Translations under genes and position numbers: made by a program
In this document: positions 13,226 through 24,000 of the stretch, piece after piece
How the letters are laid out: each line of letters opens with the position of its first letter
Position numbering within the stretch: the first letter of the stretch is position 1
The notes under the pieces: model-generated
Seen by the model: only the letters and a program-made list of their open reading frames with translations
Told to the model about the DNA's origin: nothing
Databases searched by the model: none
Source of the DNA: Mucilaginibacter terrae
GTDB lineage: Bacteria > Bacteroidota > Bacteroidia > Sphingobacteriales > Sphingobacteriaceae
Length of the DNA stretch: 24,000 nt
Direction: 5' to 3'
NCBI RefSeq assembly: GCF_042679325.1
Contig: NZ_JBHTMJ010000012.1
Coordinates: 198,766-222,765 of the forward strand

Positions 13226-13501
13226 ATGAACGACTTTAAAAAAATAATTTATAACTGCCGAAAGGCGACCTACCTGATCGATAAAAGATTAATAGGCAGG
13301 ATAACCTTTCGCGAGACAGTTGAGCTGCGTATGCACCTTTTTGGCTGCAATGTTTGCCGTATTTACATGTGCCAAAGCCAAAAGATCAACGAGATGATCA
13401 GGCAAATGCTAAAGTCAGATCACCAGCCAGAAATAAAGTTAGACGAGAATTTTAAAGATGCCCTACAAGTAAAAATTGAGAACCAATTAAATAAAAATTG
13501 A
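13226..13501 (+). CDS. Small soluble zinc-binding anti-sigma factor (ZAS type)
   Basis: The ATG lies 1 nt after the sigma gene stop. It has Cys11 and His37-x3-Cys41-x2-Cys44 (HLFGCNVC). It has no hydrophobic transmembrane segment and is 91 aa long. Confidence 0.75.
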   Translation: MNDFKKIIYNCRKATYLIDKRLIGRITFRETVELRMHLFGCNVCRIYMCQSQKINEMIRQMLKSDHQPEIKLDENFKDALQVKIENQLNKN

Positions 13502-13506
13502 CTTTT

Positions 13507-13532
13507 TGTAAGGTTTGGTAATGATTAGCGAC
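13507..13532 (+). promoter_or_regulatory. Candidate ECF-type promoter of the Met/Lys-rich mini-protein gene
   Basis: TGTAAGG (13507-13513), then 15 nt, then CGAC (13529-13532), 27 nt upstream of the ATG at 13560. It shares the extended identity TTGTAAGGTTTGGT...CGACAAAG with the YHS promoter. Confidence 0.7.
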
Positions 13533-13559
13533 AAAGGGGCAAACACTAAATAAAAAAAC

Positions 13560-13787
13560 ATGAAAACTTACAAATCACTGATCTCGGGTTTATTATTAAC
13601 AGGCGCTTTATTTCTTGCGTTCAATGTTAACGCTGCTCCTTTTCAAGACAAAATGTCTAAGATGAAAAAAGACTCTATGGAGATGAAAAAAAAGGAGATG
13701 AAAAAAATGGACAAGATGAAGATGGACAAGAAGAAGATGGACAAGAAAAAAATGAAAAAAGATACCTCGAAAATGGGTAAAATGTAA
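13560..13787 (+). CDS. Secreted Met/Lys-rich repeat mini-protein (MxKDx-like pentapeptide repeats)
   Basis: It has a signal peptide (FNVNA|AP). The predicted 50-aa mature part contains 12 Met and 21 Lys by my count, in units such as MKKDS, MKKKE, MDKKK and MKKDT. Confidence 0.7.
   Translation: MKTYKSLISGLLLTGALFLAFNVNAAPFQDKMSKMKKDSMEMKKKEMKKMDKMKMDKKKMDKKKMKKDTSKMGKM
13653..13784 (+). repeat. Purine-rich low-complexity coding repeat (ATG/AAR/GAY units)
   Basis: It contains imperfect tandem units such as atggacaagaagaag / atggacaagaaaaaa. These encode the Met/Lys-rich tail. Confidence 0.6.
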
Positions 13788-14741
13788 TATGCAGTTGATT
13801 GCGAGGTTATTATTGCTTTCCATACGAAGAGGGGCTTTTACCCTTTTTTATATCAGGCAAACTAATGCTATGCTATCGAGATCAAATATGCCTAATCGAT
13901 TCAGATCTGATCGTTGGTATGGAGCACAATTTCCAGGTAATTACCTGCATTTAATATAATAACTGGCTGCCTGCGGTGCAGGTACAAGTACCCGTCAAAT
14001 TAAAGGACCATAGGTAATTAGAAATTAAAAGGCCTCAAATTAAAATTTGAGGCCTTTTAATTGTTTTTGTTATATGCGGAGAGTTAGGGTTCAGAACCTA
14101 AGCTCCTATGCTTTGATTAACAGTGCTTTGCATTTTGAAAAGTTCCCTACTTTACGAATTACGCAAATAGCAAGTTACTCTAATTGTTAAATTGAATATA
14201 CTGTATTTAACGATTCTCATAAAGATTTTCTATTCTTGAAATGAAGTTACTTTCTTGTAAGTATAAACCATCCCAGGTGATATTGAGGATGTGGAATTAT
14301 TATTTAAAAATTAAGTGGCGATAACTTAAGAGCTCTAATATAGATTTATCTTAAAGGTTTTATTATGGTGTTCGCAATTTGAATAAAAGCATTTACCTTA
14401 CCGCTAAACCGTATTATATTGAGTTTTTTTTAAAAGCTTTATCGATGCGCATAAATATTTATAAGCAGTTCGAATTCGTTAAGTTTCAATGCTTTGTTGT
14501 GGTCTTTAATCCAGCTTATATCCTTAAAAGTGGCAGGTGGTATAATAATGGACAAAAACATATTTTGTGGTAATAAGCACTAAGCAGCCTAATCCCAATT
14601 CATCTTTTATCTTCTCAGGGATAATTCCATTACATAATTTATTGTATTAAACTTAGTCTTAATGATTATAAAATTATCTTAAAAAGAAAATTTTGATAAA
14701 AACCAAACTTACACTTCGGCGTTACTTACATAAAACAACAC
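13788..14741. other. ORF-poor AT-rich spacer at the left border of the glycosyltransferase block
   Basis: About 0.95 kb without a convincing gene. One hand-counted 60-nt line (14581-14640) was about 32% GC. It contains the strong hairpin at 14027-14058. Confidence 0.6.
14027..14058. terminator. Strong, potentially bidirectional intrinsic terminator hairpin
   Basis: AAAAGGCCTCAAAT-taaa-ATTTGAGGCCTTTT forms a perfect 14-bp stem with a 4-nt loop. It has A-run and T-run flanks and is followed by ttgtttttgtt. Confidence 0.7.
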
Positions 14742-15896
14742 ATGCAAGCCATAAACACTTGTGAGTCTTCTCCAAAATTATTCAAAATTGAGCCGAAAGA
14801 AGCAATGCGGATCGCGGTCATTGTACCAGTAAAAAACGAAGCAGAAGGATTGGTGCGTACCCTGGATGCTCTAAGGATGCAAAAGGATGAAACAGGTTTG
14901 CCGCTCCATCCTTCAATATACGAAGTGTTACTATTAGCTAATAATTGTACGGACAACACTTTTAAGATTGCTCAGCAATATCAGACCCTATTCCCAAGAT
15001 TTAACCTGCATATCTCCGAGATTGATCTGCCAAAACCTGATGCTCATATCGGCACGGTAAGAAGAATGATGATGGATGAGGCTTATGAAAGATTTATGTC
15101 CATCGGACAAGCAAAAGGAATAATAGTATCTACCGATGGGGATAGTGAGGTTGACAGCCAGTGGATTCATTTTATATTAATAGAAATGGATAAAGGAAAT
15201 GATGTGGTAGGAGGGCGCATATTAACAAGAAACACACCATCATTATCAAAAATGCATCATTTAAGGGATGTGAGTTACCGGTATCATTTAAGCCGACTCG
15301 AATCTATACTGGATCCGTCTCAATTTGATCCTTGGCCACGGCATTTTCAGTGCTACGGTCCAAGTTTGGCTGTAACGTGCGATATTTATCATAAGGCGGG
15401 GCGTATTCCGGCTATTCCATACCTGGAGGACGAAGAGTTCAGAAAAGCGCTTTACCGGATTGATGCCAAAGTAAGAAAATCACCCTTGGTTAAAGTGTAC
15501 ACATCCGCCAGACTTATAGGCAAAGTAACTTTTGGGTTTTCCGTACAGTTGAAGCAATGGGGAGATATGACGCTTGAAAATCAGCAGCAACAGGTAGAAC
15601 CGCTGCCCTCACTAATCCAGAAAACTAAAGTCAAAAATGAATTGCGCCAAGTATGGAAAAGTAAGGAAGAACTATATGCTGAAGATCACCGCTTGCAAAA
15701 AATTAGCACGGGGTTGATGCTGGATCTGCAGTGGCTCTATGAAAGGATCAGCGCATCCTCCTATTTTGGCGAGTTATGGGAATCAATAGAAGACGAACTG
15801 GAAAACGGACGCTGGAGAGAAGTTCATTCGTTGGAACCTATTTCCCAGGTAATCAGTAATTTTAGGCAATTTTTTTATGGTGCAAATTTGGCTTAA
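14742..15896 (+). CDS. Family-2 glycosyltransferase (GT-A fold)
   Basis: It has the N-terminal motif RIAVIVPVKNEAEGLVRTLDALRMQ and an acidic motif STDGDSEVD. An alternative start MRIAVIV at 14805 is possible. Confidence 0.85.
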   Translation: MQAINTCESSPKLFKIEPKEAMRIAVIVPVKNEAEGLVRTLDALRMQKDETGLPLHPSIYEVLLLANNCTDNTFKIAQQYQTLFPRFNLHISEIDLPKPDAHIGTVRRMMMDEAYERFMSIGQAKGIIVSTDGDSEVDSQWIHFILIEMDKGNDVVGGRILTRNTPSLSKMHHLRDVSYRYHLSRLESILDPSQFDPWPRHFQCYGPSLAVTCDIYHKAGRIPAIPYLEDEEFRKALYRIDAKVRKSPLVKVYTSARLIGKVTFGFSVQLKQWGDMTLENQQQQVEPLPSLIQKTKVKNELRQVWKSKEELYAEDHRLQKISTGLMLDLQWLYERISASSYFGELWESIEDELENGRWREVHSLEPISQVISNFRQFFYGANLA

Positions 15897-16714
15897 TGAA
15901 AAATGTATCGGTCGTGATTCTTGTCAGGGAGCGCCATTCCGCCCTTTGCCAAACTATGCTGGGTTTGGCAAAGGGTCAGCACTTACCGGGAGAACTTATC
16001 GTAGTGAACATGAATCAGATTCCGGGCGAGCTGCCCGATATGCCTTTCCCTGTAAGGCAGATCAGCATTTGCTCCGTTGCTATGCTTCCACTTGCTGAAG
16101 CAAGAAATGAGGGTATGGCTGCCAGCTTTTATAAACGGATAGTTTTCCTTGATGTAGATTGCATTCCGGCACCGAATATGCTCACGATTTACGGAGAACA
16201 GTGGGACGATAACCAGTTGCTTTCTGGCCAGGTACGTTATTTGCCGGCCCTTGCTGCCGGAAAGGCTTATGACCAAGAAAACCTTCATGCTCACAGCATT
16301 GCCGACCCGTTAAGGTCAGGGCTGGCTGAACTCCCTTATGAACTTTTTTGGTCTTTAAATTTTGGGTCCAGTAAAACTTTGTTTGCCTTAATCGGCGGCT
16401 TTGATGTGGGTTTTCAAGGCTATGGTGCAGAAGATACCGACTTTGCCTTCGCTGCGCGTCAAAAAAACGTCCCTGTCAAGAATATTCAGGCAACTGCTTA
16501 CCACCAGTACCATGAGAGTTACTCACCGCCGTTAAATCATCTTTCGGATATCATTGCTAATGCAAATCGCTTTTACATCAAATGGAAAAAATGGCCAATG
16601 GAAGGATGGCTATTGAAATTTGAAGAAGCAGGATTGATTTCCCGGACGGGAACCAACATACAATTATTGCGCAAGCCTACCCATGTAGAGATCCAATTAG
16701 CCTTAAAGATCTGA
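15896..16714 (+). CDS. GT-A fold glycosyltransferase (GT2 / galactosyltransferase-like)
   Basis: It has VSVVILVRERHSAL, the DxD motif FLDVDCIP, and GYGAEDTDFAF, which resembles the galactosyltransferase C-terminal region. Its start overlaps the upstream stop (TAATG). Confidence 0.8.
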   Translation: MKNVSVVILVRERHSALCQTMLGLAKGQHLPGELIVVNMNQIPGELPDMPFPVRQISICSVAMLPLAEARNEGMAASFYKRIVFLDVDCIPAPNMLTIYGEQWDDNQLLSGQVRYLPALAAGKAYDQENLHAHSIADPLRSGLAELPYELFWSLNFGSSKTLFALIGGFDVGFQGYGAEDTDFAFAARQKNVPVKNIQATAYHQYHESYSPPLNHLSDIIANANRFYIKWKKWPMEGWLLKFEEAGLISRTGTNIQLLRKPTHVEIQLALKI

Positions 16715-17776
16715 TCAGGGCGAACCGAAAAGCTGTATCGCCAACTGATCTATTGCCGCGGCAACTTGTGAAAGGGCCTGCTCATTGATAATTCCCTGCC
16801 ATTCAGGCTGCGAGCGGCTCAACTTGTCAAGTATATCCTGCCAATCGGTTTTAAAGAGCGCTTCGGGCATAACCAACGGGATAGCGAAGTGTCGTTGAAT
16901 GAGTAAAGCTTTTTGCAACTGCTCCTCGAACGGGCGTTTCTCAGGAATACAGATAAATGCTTTTTGTAAATCGGCGACCTCCATCACGGTATTGTGACCG
17001 GCGTTGCCGATCACAATACGGCATATATTGAGTACGGTTTCAGGCTCAGCACATCTCCCGTGAAAGGAAACGTTCCCCGATGACCAGTTTTGAGTGGCTA
17101 TATCACCAAGAATATGGAAATGATGCTCCGGGCAAACCCTTGCTATATGCCTGATAAAAGAAAGGCTGATACTGGTGCCCCCTCTTCCGGTTATTACAGC
17201 GACGCATTTGTCATCGCCTATAGTCAATGCTGTTTTTTTTAAGCCGGTATATCTGGAAAAACCGCCTGCAAAAAAAGTTTTTTCATCCACCCATTTTATA
17301 GAACCTGTACGTAGCCTCTCGGGATAAGGCGCCAACAGCAGAGATGCGCTTTGATAAGCAGCCAGGTGAGCAGTATCATTTCGGCTGCCGTGCTGGCGCA
17401 TGACAATCGACGGTATGCCGGATAACCTGGCAAACAGAGCGACCTCAACAGAAACATCAACGATCAAAATAATAGGGTAGGTGGCTGCAAAAAAATCACT
17501 TAGCAGTTGGTTTCTTAGGCGAATGCCGGTAACATTTAAAGGTGCATAGTGCAGGCAATCGACCGCAGTACCCGCAACGTAAGCATGGTCGTCTTCATCA
17601 GGCACGTCCGCAGGTAAATGAATACACCGGATCGACGGGGGAATGACGGTTTGATAATCCCGCATACCGCTTCCCAAAAAGGTAATCGGCCTATCCAAAT
17701 GCGCAGCTATAGCCAGCGCGCGCATCAGATGCCCTGAGCCATGATGATGAATGTAAAAGCCGATATTATAGCTCAT
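16715..17776 (-). CDS. GT-B fold glycosyltransferase (GT1/GT28, MurG-like)
   Basis: It has IHHHGSGHLMRALAIAAHL at the N-terminus and GNAGHNTVMEVADLQKAFICIPEKRPFEEQ in the C-terminal nucleotide-sugar binding region. The track start at 17800 is TTG. I prefer the ATG at 17776 (MSYNIGFY), which overlaps the upstream stop region. Confidence 0.75.
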   Translation of the reverse strand: MSYNIGFYIHHHGSGHLMRALAIAAHLDRPITFLGSGMRDYQTVIPPSIRCIHLPADVPDEDDHAYVAGTAVDCLHYAPLNVTGIRLRNQLLSDFFAATYPIILIVDVSVEVALFARLSGIPSIVMRQHGSRNDTAHLAAYQSASLLLAPYPERLRTGSIKWVDEKTFFAGGFSRYTGLKKTALTIGDDKCVAVITGRGGTSISLSFIRHIARVCPEHHFHILGDIATQNWSSGNVSFHGRCAEPETVLNICRIVIGNAGHNTVMEVADLQKAFICIPEKRPFEEQLQKALLIQRHFAIPLVMPEALFKTDWQDILDKLSRSQPEWQGIINEQALSQVAAAIDQLAIQLFGSP

Positions 17777-19109
17777 CTGCGGACTTAATAAACACATCAA
17801 GCCGATAATCTTTGGTTCGTGTAGATGACACCGGCTTAAAGGATGGATCGTTCAAGAATACTTCGTGCACCTGATCACCTGTCAGCGGATAATCCACAAC
17901 ATAATGGGTCCAGTGAACCATGATCAAAGTACCACCGGACAGAAGACTATCTGCGATTTTTCGCTTTGCAGCCAATAGGTCTTCCAAAGAAAGATAATAT
18001 CCTACTTCACTCATGACAACTAAGTCGAAGTTTCCTTCGGGATATTCATCAGGTATCGCTGCTAGCCTGAATTCAACCTCAGGATGTTTCATTAAACGTT
18101 CACGCGCAACCTCCAGGGCAGTAGCGCTGATATCGATAGATAATAAGTGCAAGCACCTGGTGCGTAGTAATTTCGTCAGCACACCTATAGAACAGCCTAT
18201 TTCCAGTGCGTTGCTATAGGTAGCCCTAGTCAGGTAAGCTATAGTGGTAGCATACTTTTCTTTTTCATACTCGCTTGCTTCAAAATTCCAGGGATCGCGG
18301 TTCTGCTGATACAGCTGTTGAAAATATACAGCAGACAGGGTGCGTTCTTTTTTGAGTTTTTGCCGCTCCATAAAATACTCCTTGCCCGTTAAAAAGTTCC
18401 CGGTCATTTCCGCACTCAGCATAAACCCATCCAGATCATCACTAATCAGGTTGCTCACCTGTGATCGGTGGGCAGCAATAGCCCTTGTTTTCTGTTCCAA
18501 AAAAGCGGAGATGTCGACGGCTATTAATTCCCCGGCGCCTAATACCGGAATGTCCGCATCCTCTGCGTTTTGGTACAGCCAGATTGGGTATTCCCAAACG
18601 GTAATGCCGTTGTTCTTCACTTCTTCCAACGCGGCGGTCAATAACTGCCAGGTGGCTCGGTGATCACAATGCGGGTCCAATTCATAGGGAACCAGGCACA
18701 GCTTAGGATTGGTAGTATGAATAATGTCTTTCAACATTTCTTTAAAGCCAATGAAACCCTCGTCATCCTTACCAGGCAGTGCGGCATCCCGGCCATGTAA
18801 AAAGTGAATATGTTCTCCAGAAACCTGCAGTAAAGCCAATGCCTCCTTAATCTCTTTTTCGCGCAGGGCGATACGGGCAGCTTCGGGGTATTCCTTGGAA
18901 TTAGGATGGGACTGACTGCCGTCTGTAGTTACAACGATCGTTACCAGACAACCTCGCTGGCGTAACAAGGTGATCAGTCCGCCGCAACCCAGTGATTCGT
19001 CGTCAGGATGTGGTGCTAATACCAGGCAGCTGTCAATGCCCATGAAAAAGTCAGGGTAAACGGGTATTGCGCTGTCCCAGAAAGCGACTTTATTAAATGG
19101 ATTGGGCAT
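17766..19109 (-). CDS. Fusion protein: PIG-L/LmbE-family de-N-acetylase (N-terminal) plus class-I SAM methyltransferase, NodS-like (C-terminal)
   Basis: The PIG-L motifs are VLAPHPDDESLGCGGLI and DPHCDHRAT. The SAM-binding motif is ALEIGCSIGVLTKLL, followed by FDLVVMSEVGYYL. It overlaps the upstream ACAD-like gene by 17 nt. Confidence 0.85.
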   Translation of the reverse strand: MPNPFNKVAFWDSAIPVYPDFFMGIDSCLVLAPHPDDESLGCGGLITLLRQRGCLVTIVVTTDGSQSHPNSKEYPEAARIALREKEIKEALALLQVSGEHIHFLHGRDAALPGKDDEGFIGFKEMLKDIIHTTNPKLCLVPYELDPHCDHRATWQLLTAALEEVKNNGITVWEYPIWLYQNAEDADIPVLGAGELIAVDISAFLEQKTRAIAAHRSQVSNLISDDLDGFMLSAEMTGNFLTGKEYFMERQKLKKERTLSAVYFQQLYQQNRDPWNFEASEYEKEKYATTIAYLTRATYSNALEIGCSIGVLTKLLRTRCLHLLSIDISATALEVARERLMKHPEVEFRLAAIPDEYPEGNFDLVVMSEVGYYLSLEDLLAAKRKIADSLLSGGTLIMVHWTHYVVDYPLTGDQVHEVFLNDPSFKPVSSTRTKDYRLDVFIKSADEL

Positions 19110-20238
19110 CTTCAGATTGATGTTTTATGAAATGATCGGCAATAGCCAGTCTGGTCGCATCCGGCGCTGGCTGGCGCAAGTAAAAAGTAAGGTCCCTGTT
19201 CAGACGTTCAAGTGGTGATGGAGACATTAGCCCCCTTGCGCCTACACATTGGTTACTGGCCTGCATAACCCGCAAACCGATCTCTTCAATTACCGTACGC
19301 GTCATATTAGCAAAAGCAATGAGTTCACCCGAACGTTCAGAATCATTAACCCAGTTGTCAAAGTTCTTGCCTGCCTGATGTAGCCATAGTTCCCCGGTTG
19401 TAATATCTATCAGCATAGCGGCCAATCTGGCTTTTTGGAACGGATCGCCGGTACGCTCCATCGCAGACAAGTAATCCATAGTATGTCCGAGAATAGCCTC
19501 GGCGCCGCCGAACTGTACCGCAGCGAACCGTATGGCACCGCTGTTGAAATAAGGTTGGCCGAGGTAGTCGCCCGGCAGGCCCAACAGTTCTTGTTCCATA
19601 ATAGGGCAACCGGTAAAATCGGTGGTGAAACTTCCGGAAGCTTTCATGCCCAATGTTTCCCAGCTGTTCCTGTCCACCCTTTCTGGTCCGATCCGGCTCA
19701 TGTCGAGGATCATCATTTGCCATCCTTTCCGGTTCGGAGTATCAATGTTTCCGGTGATCAGCGCATGCGTTACAATCGATACCCCGGAACAAAATGTTTT
19801 TGCGCCATGCAGCATTAGCTGCTCTGCATTACTTTCATAAGTGATACCATTTGCTGCCTGTGTACTCCATACGCCAAAAATGGCCTGCTCGTGGAGCACC
19901 GCATCGTACCAAGCCTTTTTTTGTATCGCTGTTCCATAAAGATGTAAAAGATATAGGGCATTGATATGACCTTCATAGATACGACCAACCGAAAGATTTG
20001 CTTTGCCCACCCGTTTCAAAAGTCCAAGTAGTGCTGCGGTATCAGGTCTATTGAAATCGAGTGGTTCCCCTGGCAACACGATTTTGAGCGCACCGCATTC
20101 AGCCAGCCATTGAAACTCCTTCACCGGTGCTATTTGTGGATCATCGATATTCGATGCGTTTGCTGCTATACGCTCCAGGCAGTCTTTGAAATCTTTCAAT
20201 TCAATGTCAAATAACGTTTTTATCATGGGGTTAAACAT
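19093..20238 (-). CDS. Acyl-CoA dehydrogenase-fold flavoenzyme (function unassigned)
   Basis: 381 aa with ACAD-like middle and C-terminal segments (WETLGMKASGSFTTDFTG, FAAVQFGGAEAILGHTMDY). It overlaps the GT4 stop by 8 nt (ATGTTTAA). Confidence 0.75.
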   Translation of the reverse strand: MFNPMIKTLFDIELKDFKDCLERIAANASNIDDPQIAPVKEFQWLAECGALKIVLPGEPLDFNRPDTAALLGLLKRVGKANLSVGRIYEGHINALYLLHLYGTAIQKKAWYDAVLHEQAIFGVWSTQAANGITYESNAEQLMLHGAKTFCSGVSIVTHALITGNIDTPNRKGWQMMILDMSRIGPERVDRNSWETLGMKASGSFTTDFTGCPIMEQELLGLPGDYLGQPYFNSGAIRFAAVQFGGAEAILGHTMDYLSAMERTGDPFQKARLAAMLIDITTGELWLHQAGKNFDNWVNDSERSGELIAFANMTRTVIEEIGLRVMQASNQCVGARGLMSPSPLERLNRDLTFYLRQPAPDATRLAIADHFIKHQSEDAQSI

Positions 20239-21322
20239 TACCGGTTAAAGCTAAACGCTGCGTGACAATTGATCCTAAAAATTTTTCATACCGGGTGAGC
20301 ATTTCTTCAATACTCAACTTTGCTTCGGCATAGTTTCGGATCTTTTGACGGTCAAGCGTCATCGCCTTACGGATCGCAACGGCCAGACCGGGCGCATTGC
20401 CGGGCTCAACTAAAAAGCCCGCTTCATCTGTAACGATTTCCGGCAAGGCACCAGCCTTTACACCCGCTACCGGCGTTCCGCAGGCCAACGCTTCGGCTAC
20501 CACCAAACCGAATGGCTCCTGCCATACTGGAGTGATCAGACAAACCTTGGCCTCACCGATAAGCCGGTTAAGCTGCTGATGATCCAGAAGACCCATCATT
20601 TGGGTATTGTCGTCCAGCAACGGTTCTATTTTCTCTGAATAATATTTCTTATCTCCAATGCCACCAGCTACTTTCAAGGGTATTCCGGCCAGCTTTGCTG
20701 CCCGAATGGCTAGGTCAAGCCCCTTATCAGGATGAATACGGCCAAACCACACCGCATAATTATTCTGTGTGCCCGTTGGATAGTACGTCCATTTGGCAAG
20801 ATCAATGCCGTTATAAATAAAAGGGCAATCGGGAATAAATTCTTTCCAGTTGTCTGCGTTAGATTGGGATACGGTAACATAATAGATGTTTTTAAATCGC
20901 TGTTCTGCGCGAGTCGCCAGTTGAAGCTCATAAAAGGGCGGTGTATGCAGAACGGTAACCATGGGCGTTTTTATAACACCCGCCATAGTGATCGGTACAT
21001 AATGCAGGCTGTTATTAAAAACTACATCCAGCTCGAGCGCATCAATCTCCGTCATCATGCGGTAATAAGCATGGTGTTCCGCGATATATTCTGAACTCAA
21101 ATCCGGCTTCTTAGGCCGCATTCCGTTACTTGCGTCATAAGATATATCGTCCAAAATTGGATGCAATGTCCCACCTGCCGTTGAGGAAGAACTGGCAAAG
21201 AGGACCACCTCATGTCCCCGCTGAGTCAGACGGTGCGTAATTTCATATGTAAAGGCCTCAAGCCCACCCGCAAATGGCGCCTTAATAGGATGTTTTAGAT
21301 GTGCAATGACGCCAATTTTCAT
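20231..21322 (-). CDS. Family-4 glycosyltransferase (GT-B, 'group 1')
   Basis: It begins MKIGVIAHL...GGLEAFTYEITHRLTQRGHEVVLFA and carries the C-terminal motif EPFGLVVAEALACGTPV (E-x7-E type). The track start at 21331 is TTG, so I prefer the ATG at 21322. Confidence 0.85.
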   Translation of the reverse strand: MKIGVIAHLKHPIKAPFAGGLEAFTYEITHRLTQRGHEVVLFASSSSTAGGTLHPILDDISYDASNGMRPKKPDLSSEYIAEHHAYYRMMTEIDALELDVVFNNSLHYVPITMAGVIKTPMVTVLHTPPFYELQLATRAEQRFKNIYYVTVSQSNADNWKEFIPDCPFIYNGIDLAKWTYYPTGTQNNYAVWFGRIHPDKGLDLAIRAAKLAGIPLKVAGGIGDKKYYSEKIEPLLDDNTQMMGLLDHQQLNRLIGEAKVCLITPVWQEPFGLVVAEALACGTPVAGVKAGALPEIVTDEAGFLVEPGNAPGLAVAIRKAMTLDRQKIRNYAEAKLSIEEMLTRYEKFLGSIVTQRLALTGNV

Positions 21323-21331
21323 GTTAAGCAA

Positions 21332-22237
21332 TGGATGAATTTATTATTAGAATTTTTTTAGAATAAACAAGTAGCTAATAGACTTGTTTTATGAACAAAT
21401 TTTTATAAAAGCAAACTTGTTACCGCGAACAAAGTATTCCGGTAGGAGGGGTTGAGCCATCGCCTCTATTTATTTTGTCAGCGCTTCTTCCCCAGCCAGA
21501 TCGACTCTGAAACATCGCCGTCAGATGGATTTCACAGTTTGTGAATAATTTGTAAGCTCAATAGGCTTCGCAACTTTAAACATAACGATGCATCACCAAT
21601 CCAGTGATTTTGGTAATGAATTAATGAAAAATGTATGAAATAGCCTCAGCAACCCGCCGCGAGTCGTAAACCAGGTTGCAGGTTTTAAAAACTTACCAGT
21701 GTAATTAGCTGCATGGCTGATACCGGGCGTATTTAAAAAGACCGGGAAAGATCACATACATTGATTTTTCGCCAGACAGACAGACAGTTCCGCCTTAAAA
21801 CCTTCATGCCAACCTCTGAAGCTAAAATCAGAAGCCGTGTAACCGCCGCCGTATGGGACAGGAAGAAACCGGTTTTGATAACATAGTTAAGCAATTACTT
21901 TTGGCCGCTTAAACCGAACTCACGTTAATCAGCTAAATTAGGGGTTTTTCTTTTTTGAAAAGTTAAGTTCGGGAAACGTACGCTAATAAAAAAACTAAAA
22001 CAAATACATAAATATTTAAAAAAAGCATAAAAATCTATTTTTTTGTATCAGGGATTGTTGTGTTTTAAGGCGGAAGCAAATAACAGCGTTATCCAACCAT
22101 TGGCTACTGCAATTTCTTCTAAAGGATTAAAACGTTGTAAGAATCATTAAATCCAGAACTTTGGCTAATAGAAAGCGTAGTTTAGCTAAATCCACATCAT
22201 GATCGATACTGATCTTTGCCCCATAAATTAATTTATC
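21332..22237. other. ORF-free spacer at the right border of the glycosyltransferase block
   Basis: About 0.9 kb with no ORF of 60 aa or more that lies wholly inside it, in any frame of the supplied track. I recognise no RNA gene in it. Confidence 0.55.
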
Positions 22238-22609
22238 ATGAAAGCGATAAGAATCAATTATTTTGGTGGACCAGAGGTCATGAAGTTAGAAGAAATATCA
22301 CGCCCGGTACCGGCTGCAGACGAAGTTTTGGTAGAAGTATATGCCAGCGGTGTAAACCCTGTAGATTGGGTTATCAGAAGCGGCGAAAACGAAGGCTTGC
22401 GATCTTTCCTTAAATTACCAATGACATTAGGTTGGGATGCTGCCGGAGTAGTTGTGGAAACCGGAAGAGAGGTTACATCTTTGAAAGCAGGTGATCAGGT
22501 TTATGGGGTTCCTAACTTTCCGGGCGACGGAAGCTATGCGGAGTTTATGCATTTTGCCAGCTATCAAAAGTGCATTATATGCGTTTATCACACCGCCTGT
22601 ACGGCTTAG
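22238..22609 (+). pseudogene. Truncated NADPH:quinone oxidoreductase / zinc-type alcohol dehydrogenase family gene (N-terminal GroES-like part only)
   Basis: MKAIRINYFGGPEVMKLEEISRPVPAADEVLVEVYASGVNPVDW...GDQVYG...GSYAEF is a typical MDR-family N-terminus. The Rossmann domain is missing. After about aa 103 the frame reads the antisense of the converging S8 gene and stops at 22609. Confidence 0.65.
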
Positions 22610-24000
22610 CTTTTTAAACAGCAGCTTTTCATTAGTGCCTGGCTTAGTAACTGAAACATCTGACCATTCTACCGACTGCTCGATACAGTGCATAACCTGC
22701 TTATAAGTTAATTGTGGATAGTAGTTCCAGATTAGGGCAGCCAGTCCCGCTGCGGTAGGTGAAGCATAACTTGTCCCGGAGTCCGTGTTATAATTATCAT
22801 GGAAAGCAGTGGAATAAATACGATCACCAGGGGCAAAAAAATCAACTGTTTTTTTACCATAATTACTGTATTGCCAAACAAGGTCAGCACCAGACGTAGT
22901 GGCACCAACTGTGAATAGATTATTAGCCCTTGTACCGTTTGCGAACGTAGGAGATGGGTAATTAATAATGGAGTCATTATCTGCTGCGTCATTACCAGCG
23001 GCAGCAAATATTAACACTCCTTTGGAGCCTGCATACCGAACGGCGTTATCTACCAATTCTTTTTGCGGAGATGTTTGCTTCCCCAAACTGATATTGATAA
23101 TTTTCGCACCATTATTTACCGCATATTGAATAGCGTTTGCAACATCTTTATCCCGCTCTTCACCAATTACTTTCGGCGTCACAATTTGGATCGGCATAAC
23201 TTCTACCCATGCAGCTATTCCTTTTATTCCGGAGTCGATCTGTGCTGCGGCGATGATGCCTGCTACTCCGTTACCGTGTGATATTGCCGGGGTCATTCGG
23301 GCATTGCCATAGTAAACGTTGGCGTTGGTATAAGGATCATCCCCCGGAGATTTTTTCCGAAACCAGGTCACATCGTTATGATCTATAATGGTTGTAGCAG
23401 TTTCATACTCGCCTTTGTAAAGGTCAACTACTGACTGGTACCCTTTAATAACCGCTTGAAGTGTTACTTTATTTCTTCTGGCAGTATCATTCCGCAAAAC
23501 ACCGGGTAACATCGTGCTTTGTGCCTTGATAACATCTGAATCCGCATCTACCGAAACTTTTGCATTGATGATGTCCCTTAAATAAATTGAATCTGTATGT
23601 AAGCTATTTTTCCAATAGGTATTAAGCAGCTTTAATGCAACAATTGCGGGTTCGGTTCTCTCGAAGATGCGTTTCCGCAAAGCCAGGTTTTCCTCCGTTT
23701 GCTTTTTCATTTCTTTCCAATACTTAAATTTGGGGTTTAAGGTATCGGTCGAATTTTCATACACATTTTTGAATTTCACGTACTCCCGTATGCAGTCATA
23801 AGTTTCCGCTTCACAATCGCCAACAAAATTCCACCCGTGTATATCATCAACATAGCCGTTACCATCATCATCCACGCCATTGCCGGCAATCTCTTTTTGA
23901 TTGGTCCATATACCGTGGCTAAATGCAGGATGCGAGATATCCATACCTACATCAATAATGGCTACAATTACTTTCTGCTTAGGTTTTTTATTCTTTAATA
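22427..24000 (-). CDS. S8 (subtilisin-like) serine peptidase, 5' end outside the window
   Basis: The frame stays open upstream of the listed Met to nt 24000 (…KVIVAIIDVGMDISHP), giving the catalytic Asp motif. The His motif is SHGNGVAG and the Ser motif is SGTSYASPTAAG. The last ~40 codons are antisense to the oxidoreductase fragment, so the true C-terminus is uncertain. Confidence 0.85.
   Translation of the reverse strand, partial: LKNKKPKQKVIVAIIDVGMDISHPAFSHGIWTNQKEIAGNGVDDDGNGYVDDIHGWNFVGDCEAETYDCIREYVKFKNVYENSTDTLNPKFKYWKEMKKQTEENLALRKRIFERTEPAIVALKLLNTYWKNSLHTDSIYLRDIINAKVSVDADSDVIKAQSTMLPGVLRNDTARRNKVTLQAVIKGYQSVVDLYKGEYETATTIIDHNDVTWFRKKSPGDDPYTNANVYYGNARMTPAISHGNGVAGIIAAAQIDSGIKGIAAWVEVMPIQIVTPKVIGEERDKDVANAIQYAVNNGAKIINISLGKQTSPQKELVDNAVRYAGSKGVLIFAAAGNDAADNDSIINYPSPTFANGTRANNLFTVGATTSGADLVWQYSNYGKKTVDFFAPGDRIYSTAFHDNYNTDSGTSYASPTAAGLAALIWNYYPQLTYKQVMHCIEQSVEWSDVSVTKPGTNEKLLFKKLSRTGGVINAYNALLIAGKMHKLRIASVARKVRNPINLITCFQRCNLSSGFHNYSGSIPT

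Follow-up and report, generated by a model that had tools for sequence, protein, structure and literature searches.

A PIG-L deacetylase fused to a NodS-like methyltransferase in Mucilaginibacter terrae as part of a candidate glycoside-building cassette

In the stretch of Mucilaginibacter terrae DNA analysed here (24,000 nucleotides; hereafter the window), a minus-strand gene at 17766..19109 encodes a 447-residue protein in which a PIG-L de-N-acetylase is joined in one uninterrupted frame to a NodS-like class I methyltransferase (MT) dependent on S-adenosylmethionine (SAM). Together with a flavoprotein of the acyl-CoA dehydrogenase (ACAD) fold (19093..20238, minus strand) and a family 2 glycosyltransferase (GT) termed GT2a (14742..15896, plus strand), this fusion makes up a set of enzymes that recurs in distant bacteria, and on balance the block is probably the centre of a widespread, uncharacterised cytoplasmic cassette that builds a glycoside. 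In the proposed order of steps, GT2a would transfer an N-acetylglucosamine (GlcNAc)-type sugar to an acceptor, the PIG-L domain would strip the N-acetyl group at its His/Asp/His metal site, and the fused NodS-like domain would use SAM to methylate the amine so exposed. The ACAD-fold flavoprotein, which falls in the structural class of DszC, MsuC and the nitrososynthases, may then oxidise the resulting compound, perhaps at its new (methyl)amine. The block in the window represents an extended form of the cassette, in which the core (ACAD, PIG-L, MT and GT2a) is accompanied by three further glycosyltransferases (GT4, GT-B and GT2b) that would add more sugars.

The assignment of the two fused domains is clear. 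The PIG-L domain (approximately residues 29-246; 18372..19025) matches the Pfam family PF02585 with E=5.6e-25 over residues 29-160 (88.8 bits against a gathering score of 28.2), and the methyltransferase domain (approximately residues 256-447; 17769..18344) matches the Pfam NodS family PF05401 with E=7.4e-19 over residues 270-397 (68.8 bits against 24). The protein carries APHPDDESLGCGG at residues 32-44 and DPHCDH at residues 145-150, which hold the HPDD and HxDH metal and catalytic motifs of the PIG-L/LmbE superfamily, and the SAM motif I LEIGCSIG at residues 302-309. When aligned with the solved archaeal diacetylchitobiose deacetylase PH0499, PHPDDESLGCGG and DPHCDH pair with PHPDDCVIGMGG and SHPDH, while LEIGCSIG pairs with LEIGCAAG in the structure of NodS. 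When 27 relatives, some fused and some split, are aligned together with the BshB1 of this genome, residues H34, D36, D37, D145, H147, D149 and H150 are kept in at least 90% of the rows. The motifs that a preliminary description of this DNA had read in the open reading frame (ORF), among them HCDH and EIGCSIG, are thus present, and the catalytic residues that it proposed to check are intact. Among solved structures, the methyltransferase domain is closest to 4isc (E=6.7e-23), followed by NodS (3ofj, E=3.9e-12). The 4isc entry, titled 'Methyltransferase', is a 164-residue chain that aligns with residues 281-440, including the conserved C-terminal part; unlike the domain in the window it is unfused, its record names no substrate, and it is probably a stand-alone methyltransferase of the same family.

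The fusion is genuine and no sequencing artefact, since a database search matches it to more than 1,800 proteins at E<=0.001 and 29 related loci carry the PIG-L-MT frame without interruption. Both domains are present in all 120 of the matches listed, which include proteins named for Mucilaginibacter, Pedobacter, Lewinella and Neolewinella and many that NCBI already calls 'bifunctional PIG-L family deacetylase/class I SAM-dependent methyltransferase'. The orthologous fusions are 441-449 residues long and 50-78% identical. Of 81 loci with both domains, the two are split in 52, with the stand-alone methyltransferase starting at approximately residue 256 of the fusion. Because the domains are fused or adjacent in all 81 loci, always as PIG-L then MT, their sequence context supports a functional coupling. 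The nearest characterised relatives of both domains (BshB-type enzymes, the archaeal diacetylchitobiose deacetylase and NodS) act on GlcNAc or glucosamine (GlcN) amines, and deacetylation followed by methylation of the freed GlcN amine is the best reading of the pair. To this extent the deacetylate-then-modify logic of the preliminary description stands; its closer analogues do not fit as well, with the protein falling far short of the equivalog cut-offs for BshB, MshB and NodS (73.9 against 300 for the methyltransferase domain and the NodS model NF041650).

The setting of the fusion is conserved far beyond Mucilaginibacter. A tblastn comparison of six window proteins with 88 fetched loci recovered ACAD, PIG-L, MT and a GT2a orthologue in nearly all of them (Bacteroidota, Alphaproteobacteria and Deinococcus), and the window block has the same core, with ACAD, PIG-L and MT co-directional and in that order beside an orthologous GT2. 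ORF clustering recovered GT2a in 79 loci. Along its entire length it shares 41-47% identity with the GT2 proteins that lie beside ACAD, PIG-L and MT in distant loci, and it is the glycosyltransferase that accompanies the cassette universally. Its AlphaFold2 (AF2) model, with a predicted local distance difference test score (pLDDT) of 87.7, combines a GT-A domain with a helical domain at the C-terminus that is peculiar to the family. GT2a is close to no NCBIfam family, the GT2 genes do not match NodC at E<=0.001, and HpnB is matched by one GT2 orthologue, at only 19 bits. The other three glycosyltransferases, GT4, GT-B and GT2b, are confined to a Pedobacter/Mucilaginibacter-type subset and to plasmid pSA2 of Novosphingobium resinovorum, where a single operon, read in one direction and adjoining a catalase gene, contains homologues of all seven domains. 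The preliminary description placed GT4 two genes upstream of the fusion (20231..21322, minus strand), which is correct, and took it to fit the deacetylation logic. In the comparison GT4 is only an accessory of the extended form, and the conserved partner is GT2a, on the other strand and outside the region then described. The operon had been drawn incompletely.

The order ACAD, PIG-L, MT is common to Deinococcus radiodurans, a Bradyrhizobium japonicum plasmid and the Novosphingobium plasmid. A GT2a homologue is present in both plasmid loci, and none was detected within the fetched D. radiodurans locus (NZ_OV024759.1, 5258-18259). In that locus the ACAD-fold gene encodes 779 residues, of which the 427-residue N-terminal part has no Pfam match, and a DEAD/DEAH helicase gene stands between the PIG-L and MT genes. 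Pairs of cassette members have also fused naturally in other combinations, as GT4::ACAD (approximately 720-730 residues) and ACAD::PIG-L (680 residues). The ACAD-fold proteins are 35-50% identical across phyla, and when the ACAD-fold gene alone is compared, homologues of 31-40% identity turn up in Nostoc, Methylobacterium, Komagataeibacter, Sulfitobacter and Paracoccus, in each case on a plasmid or megaplasmid. Published gene maps of Acinetobacter baumannii ATCC 17978 and A. nosocomialis annotate ACAD, LmbE-like (GlcNAc-PI de-N-acetylase), MT and GT genes beside blsA (PMC9020721 Fig. 3; PMC6240043), and these four enzyme types are the same as those in the window, the likeness being one of annotation alone. 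Relative to the Acinetobacter, Deinococcus and plasmid cassettes, the window block has PIG-L and MT fused and three additional glycosyltransferases. The literature searches turned up no functional study of the cassette and none that gives it a product; the two Acinetobacter papers were the only ones found to show it, and the presumed A1S locus tags yielded no paper.

The ACAD-fold flavoprotein has 381 residues, with an alternative start at ATG 20226. It matches Acyl-CoA_dh_1 of Pfam with E=1.4e-8, and its AF2 model (pLDDT 90.6) adopts the three-domain ACAD fold, with template modelling (TM) scores of 0.81-0.85 to ACAD-fold structures. Within Bacteroidota the family is approximately 50% identical (42 sequences; mean column identity 52%), and its invariant motifs include GRxxEGH and YLxQPxPD, the latter within the consensus YLRQPAPDAT. 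Alignment with rat short-chain acyl-CoA dehydrogenase (SCAD) places Gln356, invariant in the 42 sequences, at the position of the catalytic Glu of the YEG motif, and Ile236 immediately before the conserved Arg237, at what we take to be the helix G site where enzymes of the isovaleryl-CoA dehydrogenase (IVD) type put their alternative base. The Glu base of an ACAD is thus missing from both positions. In a search with the family profile, TdsC (E=5.6e-19), MsuC (2.7e-18) and DszC lead, with values up to 5e-18, and true ACADs follow at 7.7e-17 or weaker. Foldseek likewise ranks TdsC (TM 0.84-0.85), 5z8t and DszC at the top, with SCAD at 0.81, MsuC among the true ACADs, and a nitrososynthase and KijD3 at 0.77-0.79. 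By profile and structure alike, its nearest neighbours are therefore ACAD-fold monooxygenases of the DszC/SfnB/MsuC type. His91 pairs with the histidine of their G(Y/F)H motif, which DszC/TdsC and MsuC have in common with the flavoprotein at an overall identity of only 17-20%, and the protein scores well below the equivalog cut-offs for SfnB (59.2 against 430.9) and DszC (40.2 against 850). The nitrososynthases ORF36, KijD3 and DnmZ, which belong to the same ACAD-fold class, oxidise the amines of amino sugars according to the titles of 3mxl and 4kcf. Judged from alignment and model, a role as an alpha,beta-dehydrogenase is very unlikely, and the protein is more likely an oxygenase or oxidase that depends on flavin and has an active-site arrangement of its own. 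The speculative oxygenase alternative of the preliminary description is hence favoured by profile, fold and Gln356 over the true acyl-CoA dehydrogenase that it had also considered. A complex prediction for the flavoprotein and the fusion gave a score of 0.00, which is evidence neither for nor against an interaction.

Several alternative roles for the cassette can be considered. If the flavoprotein were after all a true acyl-CoA or acyl-ACP (acyl carrier protein) dehydrogenase, the unsaturated acyl group might re-acylate the amine to give a lipo-glycoside, as in Nod factors, teicoplanin and tunicamycin. Pathways that deacetylate and then acylate are established for Nod factors and teicoplanin, the Pfam Acyl-CoA_dh_1/2 matches exceed the gathering score, and true ACADs are structurally close (TM 0.81). 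However, the invariant Gln356 and Ile236 occupy the base positions, the conserved genes include no N-acyltransferase, ACP or acyl-CoA ligase, and the methyltransferase would compete for the same amine, so this scheme is improbable. It is slightly less so that the domains catalyse something other than their homology indicates, for example with PIG-L acting as an Mca-like amidase in detoxification or catabolism and MT methylating oxygen or carbon. The PIG-L superfamily does include amidases such as Mca and LmbE, with a 20-bit match to Mca here, and the methyltransferase domain also matches the generic Pfam models Methyltransf_11/12/25; the constant pairing with glycosyltransferases nevertheless points to biosynthesis, the methyltransferase has NodS as its best characterised relative, and such a reading is distinctly unlikely. 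A further idea is that the GlcNAc tailored by the cassette sits on a macromolecule, be it a wall polymer, a capsule, a protein or a nucleic acid, and not on a small metabolite. This would suit the teichoic-acid glycosyltransferases RmlT, TarS and TarP that are the best structural matches of GT2a, the four glycosyltransferases of the extended form and a weak Pfam match to GT4-conflict. Yet those structural matches are weak, the genes conserved alongside the cassette include no flippase, polymerase, priming transferase or exporter, no protein has a membrane segment, and the cassette is shared by phyla whose envelopes differ greatly, which leaves a macromolecular substrate unlikely.

Synthesis of a low-molecular-weight thiol, the analogy drawn in the preliminary description, is the alternative that fares worst. 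In it, GT4 would act as BshA or MshA and PIG-L as BshB or MshB; the pairing of a GT4 with a PIG-L protein does resemble BshA/BshB, and BshB2 and BshB1 are the best NCBIfam matches of the PIG-L domain. All of these scores are nonetheless far below the equivalog cut-offs: the fusion reaches 70.2 against 195.25 and 56.6 against 182.5 for the BshB models TIGR04000 and TIGR04001 and 29.3 against 224.35 for MshB (TIGR03445), and GT4 reaches 46.4 against 273.7 for BshA. The genome encodes a separate set above cut-off on contigs other than that of the window (C12), with BshA at 564 bits against 274 (C17:177505-178620), BshC at 444 bits against 266 (C18:64375-65925) and BshB1 at 277.7 bits against 182.5 (contig C3, L013:1477-2199), so that the fusion is not the BshB partner of BshA and BshC. 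These three genes are scattered over three contigs, and bshB1 directly follows a glutathione-peroxidase-like gene (L013:962-1480). There is no BshC/MshC-like cysteine ligase in the block, as had been noted earlier, or in any of the approximately 88 loci, and GT4 is missing from most cassettes. The parallel formerly drawn with N-methyl-bacillithiol also fails, since NmbA methylates the cysteine amine of finished bacillithiol (PMC6282198; 10.1101/2025.07.06.663066) and there would be no reason for a deacetylase-MT fusion in that pathway. A bacillithiol or mycothiol role for the block was accordingly rejected on the canonical BshA, BshB1 and BshC encoded elsewhere and the sub-cut-off scores, and a thiol pathway of any kind is scarcely credible here.

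With these alternatives weighed, a cytoplasmic cassette that builds and then tailors a GlcNAc-type glycoside remains the preferred reading. What it makes is probably a small glycoconjugate, either soluble or peripheral to the membrane, because the proteins have no predicted membrane segments and the conserved set contains no exporter. The six proteins of the block have a mean Kyte-Doolittle hydropathy of at most 1.83 in every 19-residue window and are read from their sequences as soluble or peripheral. A more specific proposal, offered tentatively, is that the cassette makes an undescribed class of small soluble glucosamine glycosides that are N-methylated and might also be N-oxygenated, with at least four of the phyla sampled (Bacteroidota, Pseudomonadota, Deinococcota and Cyanobacteriota) having them and with a role in the response to stress or light. 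The suggestion of such a role comes from the neighbouring genes: in Novosphingobium one for catalase, and in Acinetobacter and Bradyrhizobium those for BLUF blue-light photoreceptors.

A number of observations weigh against this reading. No member of the cassette has been characterised, and every chemical step is proposed by analogy: the data establish the domains with their motifs, the operon, its conservation and the fusions, and from these the substrate, the sequence of reactions, methylation at nitrogen, the oxygenase chemistry and the product are inferred. The sugar donor of GT2a is only putatively of the GlcNAc type, and its best structural matches (TM approximately 0.42) reflect a generic GT-A fold. 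A NodS-like fold is no proof of N- over O-methylation. For the flavoprotein, the structural margin between monooxygenases and true ACADs is small (Foldseek TM 0.84 against 0.81), the conserved gene set contains no flavin reductase, and the C-terminal HDP of DszC and MsuC is replaced by an invariant RQP, so that the protein fits neither subgroup cleanly.

The genes of the block are tightly packed. On the minus strand, GT4 (likely start ATG 21322) overlaps the ACAD gene by 8 nt, the ACAD gene overlaps the fusion gene by 17 nt, and the fusion gene overlaps that of the GT-B protein by 11 nt (16715..17776; likely start ATG 17776). The GT-B protein has a weak match to Glyco_tran_28_C, and a PDB sequence search with it and GT2a returned no match at E<=0.1. 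On the plus strand, GT2a and the second, small GT2 (GT2b, 15896..16714) overlap by 1 nt and converge on the minus-strand operon with zero spacer. Upstream of GT4, approximately 0.9 kb (21332-22237) contains no ORF of at least 100 residues and no Rfam match, and may be a decayed coding sequence or a long leader. An Rfam scan of 13400-22700 found nothing credible, the sole match being Yfr10 at E=0.5. No copy of the extracytoplasmic function (ECF) promoter motif of a neighbouring regulon (TGTAAGG-N15-CGAC) lies upstream of either transcription unit of the block, and neither the Novosphingobium nor the Bradyrhizobium locus contains GGAAC-N15-18-CGTT, the general-stress motif of Alphaproteobacteria. 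Since both promoter motifs are absent, stress control is not confirmed. A BLUF gene is found approximately 6 kb from the Bradyrhizobium copy (plasmid pS11L-1), and the blsA gene beside the Acinetobacter cassette is also a BLUF gene; this proximity in two unrelated lineages could be coincidence or a hint of control by light or stress.

The cassette is accessory and patchy in its distribution. A search of 120 other Mucilaginibacter genomes recovered it in 9, three of which have the close, extended type (68-75% identity) and the remainder a type of approximately 47-52% identity; among 400 genomes sampled evenly across the phylum, 4 have it. A quick maximum-likelihood tree built from the ACAD-fold proteins groups the extended-type sequences of Bacteroidota in one clade and the core-type sequences in a separate one (Shimodaira-Hasegawa-like approximate likelihood ratio test, SH-aLRT, 97 and 99, respectively). 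Mucilaginibacter genomes occur in both, and two sequences (L100, from the Bradyrhizobium plasmid, and L101) have very long branches. The block is richer in G+C than its surroundings, at 0.47-0.49 (0.43-0.49 over all of 15001-21000), with most of the window at approximately 0.40-0.44. The patchy distribution, the tree and the raised G+C together suggest that the block is a horizontally acquired island. Three contigs labelled as metagenome-assembled Janthinobacterium lividum (L016, L046 and L053) encode cassette proteins 45-50% identical to those of Bacteroidota, and L053 falls among Sphingobacteriaceae in the tree, beside a metagenome-assembled Mucilaginibacter; these contigs may be mis-binned. 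In three Dyadobacter or other Cytophagales loci (L055, L060 and L062), ACAD orthologues of 49-50% identity stand apart, with PIG-L, MT and GT2a all missing from the 8 kb to each side. These are flavoproteins that have been orphaned or else members of a cassette that is dispersed.

No neighbours beyond the cassette are conserved across lineages. In Spirosoma-type loci (L017, L018, L061, L064-L066, L072, L085 and L087), a divergent Glyco_trans_1_4 gene precedes the ACAD gene, and the cassette GT2 is followed by a module of a short-chain dehydrogenase/reductase (SDR), Gluconate_2-dh3, a GMC oxidoreductase and a family 1 glycoside hydrolase (GH1), in which the SDR was undetected in L085. This module is lineage-specific synteny.

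Comparison with known systems places the proposed pathway among those in which a GlcNAc glycoside is built, opened by a deacetylase and then tailored. The closest parallel in logic is the Nod-factor series of NodC (a GT2), NodB and NodS, and the methyltransferase in the window passes the Pfam threshold for NodS. The Nod-factor genes differ from the block in several ways: the GT2 here has no membrane segments and no match to NodC, there is no NodA, and an ACAD-fold flavoprotein is added. NodB itself has a carbohydrate esterase family 4 (CE4) fold, whereas the deacetylase here has the PIG-L fold. In the synthesis of the hopanoid side chain, HpnI (a GT2) adds GlcNAc and HpnK (a PIG-L protein) de-N-acetylates it; the block differs in that no hopanoid genes and no radical-SAM HpnJ are present. 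Bacillithiol and mycothiol synthesis likewise starts with a glycosyltransferase that makes a GlcNAc glycoside, which a PIG-L zinc deacetylase then opens, and is set apart by its ligase and by the distance of the block from its equivalog families. The four-enzyme module is tightly conserved, spans soil Bacteroidota, Alphaproteobacteria, Deinococcus, cyanobacteria and, going by the published maps, Acinetobacter, and represents an orphan pathway that has so far received only generic annotation. If its product were found, it would define the chemistry of an ACAD-fold subfamily with an invariant YLRQPAPD motif. It would also add a new branch to the pathways that proceed from a GlcNAc glycoside through PIG-L deacetylation to tailoring of the amine, which so far comprise those of bacillithiol, mycothiol, Nod factors, hopanoid glucosamine and the aminoglycosides.

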